IMG/VR virus record: IMGVR_UViG_3300034062_003964
Coordinates: 1-64,000 of that record
Strand: one strand, 5' to 3'
DNA from: a virus
Length of the DNA: 64,000 nt
Below the pieces are notes generated by a model. The model had not been told where the DNA came from. It searched no databases and saw only the letters and a program-made list of their open reading frames with translations. The translations under genes were made by a program, and so were the position numbers. The first letter of the stretch is position 1. Every line of letters starts with the position of its first letter. Of the stretch, positions 47,225 to 49,666 are shown piece by piece.

Positions 47225-49666
47225 TTAACATGATGTACATCCTGAGTAAGTACCAGAACCAAAGTTGTTTATTAAATTTAATGTGTTACTTCCATTCCAA
47301 GTTAAAGTTGGTGTTGATGGGGTATTAAAGTATGTTCCTGTAATTGTCCAACAATTACCTAATGTGTCTCTAACCGCATAAGTATACCAAGTCGAAAACG
47401 CACCTGAAGTAACAGGTTGATAAGATAATGGTAATAACATAGATTGTGTTGGTTGACTTGGGTTACTACAACTTGCTAACGCCGCTAAAAATTGACCTGT
47501 CGGTGTTGGTGTAGGAGTCGGTGTTGGTGTTGGTGTAGGAGTCGGTGTAGGAGTTGGCGTCGGAGTTGCGGTAGGTGTTGGAGTTGGCGTCGGAGTTGGT
47601 GGTGTAGGTATTAAACAATTTGGGCACCAAAAATCAAAAAGATTAAATCTATCTTTTAAAATTCTAAAATTATGTTGAACCTGTGAACTATTAAACGCTT
47701 CGGTATACATTCTAAATTGTGATAATCCACCCATAAAGGTTCCACCAAAATTCTGTTCCATTAAAATTTGTGTTGTTAAACCACTATATGTTGTTGCTGA
47801 AAGTATTTCATTTGGAAATAACTCAGGGTCTTGACCGTATGGTCCTTCTAATGGTACGTAGTTTCCGGTATAAGTTAACGTACTAGCGGTTGATGCTGAT
47901 GTAAAATACGGTGTTGTATCAAATTTAGTATAAATTGTTCCTGATTGTCCTGTCAACCCTGTGAGAGTTATAACGTTTCCACTACAAGCGGTATAAATTA
48001 AATCGGTATCAATATTACCAACAGACCAATCCCAAGTGGAACACTCTTTGAATATTAAGTGGTCGTGAAGACCTTGAGAACCACCACCCCACGATATGTT
48101 AAATGGCACACCAAGTTGTTTTTCTTTTTCACAATTCAATTCTCTTGGTATAATCTCCTCAAAGTTTTCAATCACCATGAAGTAGTAACCATTTATATAA
48201 ATTTTCAATCTACCGAGTCTATACCAAGCATCGTCAAACCATTTTCTATCAAACACCACACGATAAACCTTATCTTCTTTAGTTCCTCCCGAATGTGTTT
48301 CAGGTGGCATTATTAGATTGTATGAGGTGTTATTTAATATTGATTGGTATGTGACTTGTCTAATGTCATTTAATCCACCTAAATTTAGTAAATCACATTC
48401 TTCTATCGTTGTGTACCTTTCAAATACTGCGGTAACCATCACCCATCTATCCTCTGTAATCGCAGAACATATGTAATCACATACGTCGTATATCGGAGGA
48501 CTACAAACTTCAGTTATAGTATAACCTGTTTGAAATGTTAATCCTGTCGTCGAACAACTTCCTGTTGTGACACAATCTCCGGTAATAACAATTGTTTTAA
48601 CACATAATCTTGGGTCCGCAGCACACCCACTAAACCTTATTGATAATGCATTTGATAACACATCAAACTTGGGGTCCAAAGGTGGTATTGGTAATTGTTC
48701 TGTACAAGCTCCACAACCACAACCAATATTGTGATATGCCGTTGTTGCGCTTGACGGATAAAGACTTACACAATTTGCATTCGTATATCCAGTTTCATTA
48801 CACGTACAACTACTTAAACTTGTTAATCCTGACGTTACTCTGGTATACCCACTATTACTTTCAGGATGACCATCGGCAAAATGATAATATTTGTTTTCAG
48901 CTCTTGTTCCAAAATAAAAGAAAGTTCCAGCATTTTTTGGATAACGAGTGTTTAAATATTCTTCAGTTGAAGCACTAATTGAAAATTCATCGGTTATTCT
49001 TGGTTTGATAACCGTCTCCATAGTCCAACCCTTGTTTAATCTTTCAGGAAAAACCTCGTAATCATAACCAAATAATTTATAAAATCCTTGATAAAATCCA
49101 CCATATAGTTCTTGGTAATACCCTATTGTTGGTTGGTTTTTAGAAACTATATTATATATCGCATTTTTTGGTCTACCTGAAAACACAGTATTAGGTGGTG
49201 TCGTATAACCTGTCACCATGTGTAATTTCATCCTTCTATCATAATAATGTGGGTGAAATTTATAATCGTCTCTCACACCCATTGTATAGTATAATGTTTC
49301 ACCAGTCAATCCCGTATATAAACCATTATCCGTCGCTGTTAACCCAATATCACAAGTTCCCGTAAATGCCGATAAACAAGATAAATCTAAATTATTTGGA
49401 TTGTAATAATTTTTTGACACAAGTGTTGCCCCCGTGTAAAAAACATCGAAAGACATAGAAAGTTGCGGACAGGAGTTAGTATCGTTTAAATCTAAACGTA
49501 TTGGTAATCTTGTTCCGTCATTTGCTGCAATAATGTCCGTTGAAAAGACCACTTCCTCATCATAATCCCTTTCATCCGCAACCAATGTTAAATCAAAATA
49601 TTGTCCCGTATTTAATAAACTTCTGTATTTAGGATAATAATATGTATTTAAATTTTGAGTTGGCAT
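47225..49666 (-). CDS. Cys-rich LamG/ConA-like virion protein with PT linker
   Basis: GWTMETVIKP, LKIYING, FMGGLSQFRMYTEAFNSSQVQHNF (LamG-like), many Cys, ~20 PT dipeptides, C-terminal Cys module ending CTSC. Confidence 0.7.
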   Translation of the reverse strand: MPTQNLNTYYYPKYRSLLNTGQYFDLTLVADERDYDEEVVFSTDIIAANDGTRLPIRLDLNDTNSCPQLSMSFDVFYTGATLVSKNYYNPNNLDLSCLSAFTGTCDIGLTATDNGLYTGLTGETLYYTMGVRDDYKFHPHYYDRRMKLHMVTGYTTPPNTVFSGRPKNAIYNIVSKNQPTIGYYQELYGGFYQGFYKLFGYDYEVFPERLNKGWTMETVIKPRITDEFSISASTEEYLNTRYPKNAGTFFYFGTRAENKYYHFADGHPESNSGYTRVTSGLTSLSSCTCNETGYTNANCVSLYPSSATTAYHNIGCGCGACTEQLPIPPLDPKFDVLSNALSIRFSGCAADPRLCVKTIVITGDCVTTGSCSTTGLTFQTGYTITEVCSPPIYDVCDYICSAITEDRWVMVTAVFERYTTIEECDLLNLGGLNDIRQVTYQSILNNTSYNLIMPPETHSGGTKEDKVYRVVFDRKWFDDAWYRLGRLKIYINGYYFMVIENFEEIIPRELNCEKEKQLGVPFNISWGGGSQGLHDHLIFKECSTWDWSVGNIDTDLIYTACSGNVITLTGLTGQSGTIYTKFDTTPYFTSASTASTLTYTGNYVPLEGPYGQDPELFPNEILSATTYSGLTTQILMEQNFGGTFMGGLSQFRMYTEAFNSSQVQHNFRILKDRFNLFDFWCPNCLIPTPPTPTPTPTPTATPTPTPTPTPTPTPTPTPTPTPTGQFLAALASCSNPSQPTQSMLLPLSYQPVTSGAFSTWYTYAVRDTLGNCWTITGTYFNTPSTPTLTWNGSNTLNLINNFGSGTYSGCTSC
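47499..47610 (-). repeat. Pro-Thr low-complexity coding repeat
   Basis: (CCN ACN)n encoding PTPPTPTPTPTPTATPTPT... in the 813-aa ORF. Confidence 0.95.

Follow-up and report, generated by a model that had tools for sequence, protein, structure and literature searches.

What is the meaning of a four-residue motif, [ST]-G-x-T (Ser/Thr-Gly-any-Thr), that recurs in predicted virion proteins of a phage? The question is raised by the first 64 kb (64,000 nucleotides, hereafter the window) of a single 121,467-bp virus contig, IMG/VR record IMGVR_UViG_3300034062_003964, and above all by the 813-residue protein encoded at positions 47225-49666. An initial annotation of the window had taken the motif for a candidate phage-specific glycosylation sequon. 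Our comparisons of protein sequences indicate that [ST]-G-x-T is a selected short linear motif, borne, at five to ten times the expected frequency, by variable, probably outward-facing parts of some virion proteins of this lineage.

Gene content identifies the contig as part of a T4-like myovirus, since a Gp23-type capsid protein, a sheath and a baseplate wedge protein are encoded. Related records are as long as 292 kb, one of them with an estimated completeness of 99%; therefore the contig is probably less than half of a genome. The nearest cultured phages, judged by the capsid protein (35-43% identity), are Microcystis phage Mel-JY01, Flavobacterium phage immuto and Rhodothermus phage RM378. 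The open reading frames (ORFs) needed first are the following:

47225-49666, minus strand: 813-residue protein with 13 motifs (counts, shuffles)
34456-37683, minus strand: tail sheath, 1075 residues, 9 motifs; sheath families match residues 784-1073
2-4579, minus strand: left-end giant ORF, 8 motifs, running off the window (counts, shuffles)
Contig 81921-83717, outside the window: Gp23-type capsid protein

An Excess Confined to a Few Virion Proteins

Thirteen motifs occur in the 813-residue protein, nine in the sheath and eight in the giant ORF, against 1.75, 2.15 and 1.67 expected from composition. When each protein was shuffled 5000 times, globally and within blocks of 60, 30 and 15 residues, the expected numbers were 1.8-2.3 (p<0.0002), 2.2-3.1 (p=0.002-0.003 in block shuffles) and 1.6-1.9 (p~0.0004), respectively, and the enrichment of all three held, at p<=0.003, down to blocks of 15 residues. 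The hand counts of the initial annotation had come close, with twelve motifs in the first protein (SGCT at residue 808 was overlooked), at least eight in the second (TGGT was overlooked) and at least eight in the third, where eight is exact and includes the quoted ITGATTQQFSGITSGTTG stretch.

In the window, these three proteins hold 30 motifs vs. 5.6 expected, and the remaining 41 ORFs hold 12 vs. 8.6. Outside the window, the contig encodes four further enriched proteins: one of 492 residues (9 vs. 0.83 expected), two small Laminin_G_3 proteins (6 vs. 0.85 and 3 vs. 1.1) and a PA14/GLEYA protein (4 vs. 1.4). Altogether, the seven enriched proteins of the contig contain 52 motifs vs. 9.8 expected, and the other 84 ORFs 19 vs. 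14.1. The excess thus resides in a subset of the virion proteins, and none is found in replication enzymes. The statement that the motif saturates virion proteins was overstated: the 600-residue and baseplate-wedge proteins show no enrichment in shuffles, and the capsid protein has merely 2 motifs vs. 0.57 expected. The several motifs announced in the 2321- and 2034-residue proteins do exist, four in each, but neither protein is significantly enriched (shuffle p=0.04-0.07 and p=0.14-0.27, respectively). The absence of the motif from NrdA and PolB was likewise accurate, but it is uninformative because fewer than 0.4 motifs are expected in each (0.37 and 0.26).

An artefact of composition, of local low complexity, of a signal in the DNA or of one shared domain could produce such counts. 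The enriched proteins are rich in Thr (0.09-0.16 vs. ~0.05 elsewhere), and the motif was picked after the data had been seen. Composition does explain the 2321- and 2034-residue proteins, and those only; for the 813-residue protein, the sheath and the giant ORF, the global and block shuffles reject it, as Ser/Thr/Gly composition, whether global or local, cannot account for their excess. The choice of the motif was addressed by scanning the ORFs of the contig, except one low-complexity ORF of 3131 residues, for every three-residue pattern with six arrangements of gaps. Among the 17,678 gapped patterns with at least five occurrences, SG.T ranked first (39 vs. 11.4 expected, p=1.2e-10) and TG.T eighth (32 vs. 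12.5). In the window-only scan, the two patterns ranked 12 and 16 of 9,722, ranks 1-11 all coming from the (TP)n linker of the 813-residue protein. Such unbiased scans, of the contig, of the window and of the relatives described below, reject post hoc choice as the cause of the excess, and we consider an artefact of any of these kinds highly improbable.

The Full Motif Is the Unit

Which part of the motif is in excess? In the seven enriched proteins, its 52 occurrences compare with 10 of T.G[ST], 12 of [ST]G.S, 17 of [ST]A.T, 15 of [ST]G..T and 14 of [ST]GT. Ser or Thr precedes G.T in 52 of the 84 cases. Neither SG/TG nor G.T departs from expectation when complete motifs are excluded. Enrichment hence applies only to the combination of the three fixed residues, and the unit is the full motif. 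Position 1 is evenly divided between Ser (26) and Thr (26), whereas position 4 is Thr 52 times vs. Ser 12 times. A hydrophobic residue occupies x 27 times vs. 3.0 expected in the enriched proteins, and 7 times vs. 4.6 expected in the rest. The N-x-S/T pattern was considered as the true sequon and rejected, as it is not enriched in the same proteins (N.T 48 vs. 43.2 expected; N.S 30 vs. 33.7).

A motif built around Gly might be a local structural element, namely a Gly bulge or tight turn that Ser/Thr caps where strands end, favored by the beta-sandwich and fibre modules on the surface of this phage lineage and bearing no modification. We regard this reading, the main rival of glycosylation, as quite possible, though less probable. 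The preference for Thr over Ser at position 4 matches beta-strand propensity and speaks for it. Asn and Asp are the usual residues ahead of a turn Gly; their lack of enrichment at position 1, before Gly, in the seven enriched proteins argues against it, and so does the absence of any excess of SG/TG or G.T alone.

Synonymous codon choice at the motif does not depart from the background of the proteins concerned, and Ser is encoded there by codons of both families. Selection therefore acts on the protein, not on the DNA, and a DNA-level signal is rejected. One inherited domain shared by all these proteins fares no better. Flanks of 40 residues around 30 non-overlapping sites, with the motif masked, gave a mean local score of 18.3, vs. 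17.5 for 20 control windows; the single high-scoring pair probably reflects two paralogous LamG proteins. Flanks barely more alike than controls leave a shared domain no explanation of the recurrence, and they bear out the earlier remark that the motif recurs across unrelated folds, insofar as the flanks are unrelated in sequence.

Sites Turn Over While Their Number Is Kept

The motif sites of the 813-residue protein begin at residues 78, 118, 121, 152, 272, 279, 292, 374, 380, 459, 569, 628 and 808. They are best followed along these segments of the protein and of the sheath:

48518-48547, minus strand: TGLT (374) and TGYT (380) in a Cys-flanked segment, the best-conserved sites (116/120 and 109/120 homologues)
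48782-48853, minus strand: SGYT (272), SGLT (279) and TGYT (292), with the motif kept in 104/119, 60/120 and 96/120 homologues
47501-47611, minus strand: (Thr-Pro)n linker, residues 686-722, recognized from sequence; PT/TP patterns lead the scans
36586-37314, minus strand: motif hotspot of the sheath, residues 124-366, with 8 of its 9 sites, in the lineage-specific part of the sheath

The core of the 813-residue protein is beta-rich and probably ConA/LamG-like, as far as its AlphaFold2 (AF2) model and searches allow, and it is accompanied by Cys-rich insertions, the (TP)n linker and a C-terminal add-on. The model has a pLDDT (predicted local distance difference test) of 61, with a confident beta core and low-confidence insertions. 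Foldseek against the PDB returned nothing at E<=0.001, and no match was obtained in a profile search of PDB sequences, in Pfam or among GenBank phages; the sole PHROG match covers the PT linker. The Atlas feature search gave a LamG lead only, and the fold and feature leads, ConA/LamG-like, are weak. The linker itself is perfect over ~37 residues and joins the conserved core to the C-terminal add-on, in place of which relatives carry other modules. In other systems, linkers of the (Thr-Pro)n type are classic targets of O-glycosylation.

The family of this protein comprises at least 1345 clusters at 90% identity and 826 at 50%. Across 120 homologues (49-97% identity), 1049 motifs were counted vs. 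109 expected, 4-16 per protein, and they fall on 54 site columns in total. Apart from the five best-kept sites, to which we return below, the sites of the 813-residue protein keep the motif in 20-65% of the homologues. Within the motif, the Thr at position 4 is more conserved than other Thr residues (0.79 vs. 0.55, p=0.02), Ser and Thr replace each other at position 1, and x is less conserved than average (0.53 vs. 0.69). Conservation of the Gly of the motif is below that of other Gly residues (0.78 vs. 0.90), contrary to what would be anticipated of a structural Gly. Likewise, 84 distant representatives (146-240 bits) contain 633 motifs vs. 62.4 expected; in the 67 of them that reach at least 430 residues, the 450 motifs of the aligned parts lie on 145 profile columns, a scatter to which alignment error contributes. 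A few members of the family are nearly motif-free, such as P0241 (570 residues), which has none. P0241 retains the core signatures and is devoid of the Cys-rich insertions; scans for related loci starting from it yielded only relatives of 31-35% identity.

None of the nine sheath sites falls within the conserved C-terminal core (residues 784-1073, PHROG). The 51 unique orthologues of the sheath (64-100% identity) carry 4-9 motifs each vs. 1.9 expected, and every site falls at residues 124-363, or at 670 or 684. Of the 19 site columns, a single one is invariant. The giant ORF behaves similarly, as three orthologues have 12 site columns and only one of these is common to all three. Three-way comparisons of the sheath, the 492-residue protein, the giant ORF and the capsid protein likewise gave few shared sites and many private ones. 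Positions that turn over while the number is kept speak against a structural element.

The structural models are compatible with more than one context. A model of sheath residues 100-400 has a pLDDT of 56, too poor for a fold search. Among the better-predicted sites, and at moderate confidence, it places 124 in the middle of a strand, 135 at the end of one, 138 in a hairpin loop, 193 immediately ahead of a strand and 212 behind a helix. The SGNT at the strand end and the TGGT forming the hairpin loop are what a bulge or turn element would predict; the variation of predicted contexts among sites is not. Within the limited confidence of the model, there would be no single structural context for the motif. 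The initial annotation had located the motif mostly in exposed or inserted segments. The position of the sheath sites outside the core is compatible with this, and so is the finding that 9 of the 13 sites of the 813-residue protein begin in segments with pLDDT<50 (41% of residues; binomial p=0.04), including 272, 279 and 292 in the low-confidence segment 256-309.

The Excess Is Restricted to a Lineage

Over their full records, the relatives G002 (292 kb) and G007 (270 kb; 88% complete) contain 160 motifs vs. 62.8 expected and 130 vs. 68.5, respectively. In their pattern scans, TG.T and SG.T lead, linker-repeat patterns aside. Furthermore, the ORFs of 80 related loci that have no counterpart on the contig hold 318 motifs vs. 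117.7 expected. An artefact would not be expected to recur in two additional genomes and among remote homologues of the 813-residue protein, as this excess does.

Outgroup counts were made on 44-100 kb of each genome. No excess was seen in T4 (11 vs. 11.7 and 13 vs. 7.5 expected; the patterns rank 2033 and 8296 there), in RM378 (7 vs. 5.3) or in Mel-JY01 (13 vs. 10.2, with none in its own sheath). That the beta-rich virion proteins of these three phages lack the excess argues against a general structural element. Flavobacterium phage immuto, which has its own cluster of glycosyltransferase (GT) genes, shows a mild excess (36 vs. 22.6 and 23 vs. 11.9).

In related phages, fibre-like ORFs lie directly after the homologue of the 813-residue gene (L050 11963-12835, L051 6422-8602 and L047 11953-13671). 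Neither Pfam nor the GenBank phages gave a match to these motif-rich fibre proteins, which also contain GDGSNLTGI.

A Conserved Glycosyltransferase and a Variable Sugar Island

If the motif is read by a phage enzyme, which gene could encode it? The candidates in the window and in the remainder of the contig are as follows:

54868-56508, plus strand: two-domain GT (Glyco_tranf_2_5 + GT4, Pfam), hereafter GT2/GT4; a candidate to read the motif, on the sole ground that the two co-occur
56501-63999, plus strand: start of a variable sugar/GT island (Pfam), which runs on to contig position ~70700
Contig 107074-111657 (L003 3074-7657), plus strand, outside the window: multi-enzyme protein of 1527 residues
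Contig 111676-121071 (L003 7676-17071), minus strand, outside the window: 3131-residue ORF made of G-[ST]-[STN] triplets (GTS, GTN, GSS)

The initial annotation had suggested looking for co-occurrence of the motif with the GT genes across related phages, and the outcome differs from one enzyme to another. GT2/GT4 does co-occur: its gene lies within ~5-10 kb of the gene of the 813-residue protein in 54 of the 55 related loci that have room for it, and it is present in both G002 and G007. At the distant locus L201, the GT2/GT4 copy is 49% identical, whereas the homologue of the 813-residue protein is only ~30% identical. Four complete outgroup phage records gave no match, in a search without a positive control of its own. 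GT2/GT4 is also the sole transferase kept throughout the relatives compared. A TibC-like enzyme encoded elsewhere on the contig does not co-vary with the motif.

The island that follows encodes a GT2, a GT11+GT10 protein, an MptE/Maf-like protein, a methyltransferase, a cytidylyltransferase, a class III aminotransferase and a short-chain dehydrogenase/reductase (SDR). The GT11 and GT10 domains, both of fucosyltransferase families, are fused in one ORF (57231-58877, plus strand). Most genes of the island have no counterpart in G002 or G007, where other genes fill the same conserved flanks. A kept GT2/GT4 next to a variable island fits a conserved initiating enzyme and a variable glycan. A further GT gene, of family GT9, is flanked by those of two motif-bearing LamG proteins outside the window. 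In freshwater "moraphages," PMC12619734 describes four core GT families and Bacteroidota hosts.

The 1527-residue protein combines GT25-like and GT1/GT4 domains, a TibC-like heptosyltransferase domain (residues 951-1287) and an FkbM methyltransferase. Aligned with TibC (E=1.4e-61), the TibC-like domain retains each of the four Cys residues of the iron finger. Since enzymes of the TibC family are cytoplasmic protein O-heptosyltransferases, protein glycosylation by the phage of this contig is credible on grounds of homology. Only the methyltransferase part of the 1527-residue protein is found in G007, as a separate gene of 225 codons. The TibC-like enzyme was considered as reader of the motif and rejected, for reasons given below. 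Its substrate is likelier to be the adjacent 3131-residue protein, a proline-free, collagen-like giant convergent with the 1527-residue gene, whose (G-[ST]-[STN])n sequence includes only two [ST]G.T; a counterpart of 2919 residues exists in G002. Mel-JY01 (PP395634) has a TibC-like domain within a 1226-residue protein annotated as "methyltransferase FkbM" (L197 4750-8430), so this cultured cyanophage may, judging by homology, encode a protein O-heptosyltransferase.

As a side observation within the window, an Fe/Mn superoxide dismutase (41359-42447, plus strand) bears an N-terminal extension of ~160 residues.

Comparison with Known Glycosylation Systems

Bacteroidota, the probable host phylum, possess a general, periplasmic O-glycosylation system with the sequon D-(S/T)-(A/I/L/V/M/T) on surface proteins. 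Like the phage motif, this sequon is short, based on Ser/Thr and found on surface proteins. The initial annotation was right to set the two apart: the residue ahead of the phage motif is hydrophobic, not Asp, and among the sites only sheath site 670 is preceded by D. Moreover, phage particles assemble in the cytoplasm, unlike the substrates of a periplasmic system.

Closer in chemistry is SgtA of C. difficile, which, as described in PMC7157674, adds O-GlcNAc to Thr in the Gly-Pro-Thr collagen-like repeats of BclA3 and accepts Ser in place of Thr in vitro. By that account, every acceptor Thr of (GPT)n stands in a T-G-x-T context (T-G-P-T), as in the phage motif; the enzyme is cytoplasmic and of GT-A type, the Thr belongs to a surface structure, and the transferase gene adjoins that of its substrate (PMC7157674). 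The action of SgtA on T-G-P-T contexts in BclA3 is thus the closest chemistry on record (PMC7157674). The two systems differ in that the triplets of BclA3 are tandem and collagen-like, whereas the phage motifs are isolated, with unrelated flanks, globular or beta-rich contexts and a hydrophobic residue ahead, and form only short runs such as TGLTGET. Unlike BclA3, the collagen-like giant of the phage is nearly devoid of the motif, its two occurrences excepted.

The TibC/AAH enzymes, or BAHT (bacterial autotransporter heptosyltransferase) family, carry out cytoplasmic O-heptosylation of folded, beta-rich surface proteins, and their acceptors are described as Ser followed by small residues, e.g., N-S-G-G-A-V in TibA (PMC4358343; PDB 4RB4/4RAP). 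The contig resembles these systems in its TibC-like domain with a four-Cys iron finger. Mycobacteriophages, for their part, encode GTs that decorate their own capsid and tail proteins, the glycans being attached to capsid and tail-tube subunits at their C-termini (Freeman et al. 2023, as cited in PMC12619734), unlike the internal, scattered sites in other proteins considered here; the account given in PMC12619734 includes no short sequon. A literature search, supplements aside, did not find a short acceptor motif for the glycosylation of phage virions.

Acceptor Motif or Structural Element?

In our estimate, the most likely function of [ST]-G-x-T, put forward tentatively, is to be recognized, or to serve as acceptor, in an O-glycosylation that phage-encoded enzymes would carry out in the cytoplasm on folded virion proteins. 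One conserved transferase would start a glycan on the Ser/Thr hydroxyl or on the Thr hydroxyl of the motif, and the variable sugar island would elaborate it. That the motif is modified, which of its residues would be the acceptor and which enzyme would read it we infer. Hydroxyl specificity, the lack of Asn/Asp, the turnover of positions with kept number and the varied contexts lean toward a motif that is read, and gene content makes O-glycosylation the first candidate.

Several observations weigh against this proposal, and some of them would be expected of a structural element, which thereby stays a serious contender. The residue ahead of the motif is often hydrophobic and x prefers L/V/Y/F (also A), which would be in keeping with a Gly bulge or turn in a beta-strand. 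Five sites of the 813-residue family (121, 272, 292, 374 and 380) are nearly fixed, keeping the motif in 80-97% of the homologues as a fold requirement would. In relatives, the motif lies within fibre repeats, since the fibre-like ORFs hold repeats of ~30 residues with TGGTY, TGGTF and TGLT. In the sheath, where site columns held by at least three sequences were considered, 340 cells of the alignment are [ST]G.T, 122 are [ST]G.S, 127 are [ST]-nonGly-x-T and 176 are other; a strict sequon would not allow this drift of many sites to [ST]G.S or [ST]A.T. Avoidance of the motif in non-virion proteins is not seen either (19 vs. 14.1 expected on this contig), and its apparent depletion in orthologue sets has no statistical power because the zeros are inherited.

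The enzymes raise difficulties of their own. Co-occurrence of GT2/GT4 with the motif represents a single phylogenetic event, hence a single contrast. Its gene adjoins exonuclease and dUTPase genes; therefore, DNA glycosylation is a live alternative, and GT2/GT4 may act on DNA instead of protein. The TibC-like domain does not track the motif: Mel-JY01 has this domain (51% identity to that of the contig) yet no motif excess, and the motif-enriched G007, at 88% completeness, has no match to PF01075. In addition, TibC is described as modifying Ser, not Thr, in beta-helix loops (PMC4358343); position 1 of the phage motif is Ser or Thr about equally, and position 4 is Thr.

The motif could also be read by something other than a GT, i.e., by an enzyme of another Ser/Thr modification such as phosphorylation or acylation, by an assembly factor, or by a host surface polymer binding exposed arrays of hydroxyls. 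The same signature of a selected motif (specific residues, turnover with kept number and surface location) would be expected, and LamG-like and PA14 domains are carbohydrate-binding folds. Pfam scans of the submitted ORFs, which are not the whole genome, detected no kinase or other writer, whereas GTs are abundant, and we consider such a reader unlikely.

Significance for the Lineage

A broader picture, conceivable but still fairly uncertain, is that a widespread, uncultured aquatic lineage of jumbo T4-like phages coats its particles with glycans at hydrophobic-[S/T]-G-x-T sites, with GT2/GT4 as the reader, an exchangeable, O-antigen-like island supplying the sugars and positions that drift as those of a shield would. 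Virion glycosylation is known in few cultured phages, and, if the picture is true, the motif would give it its first defined acceptor code. Glycosylated phage proteins would then be predictable from sequence alone, and the large, variable sugar islands of these phages would be explained. If the motif is structural instead, it would constitute a lineage-specific building rule for surface domains, useful in modeling these proteins. The question ultimately bears on the encounters of phage particles in lakes and oceans with host surfaces and with grazers, and on how they engage these or evade them.

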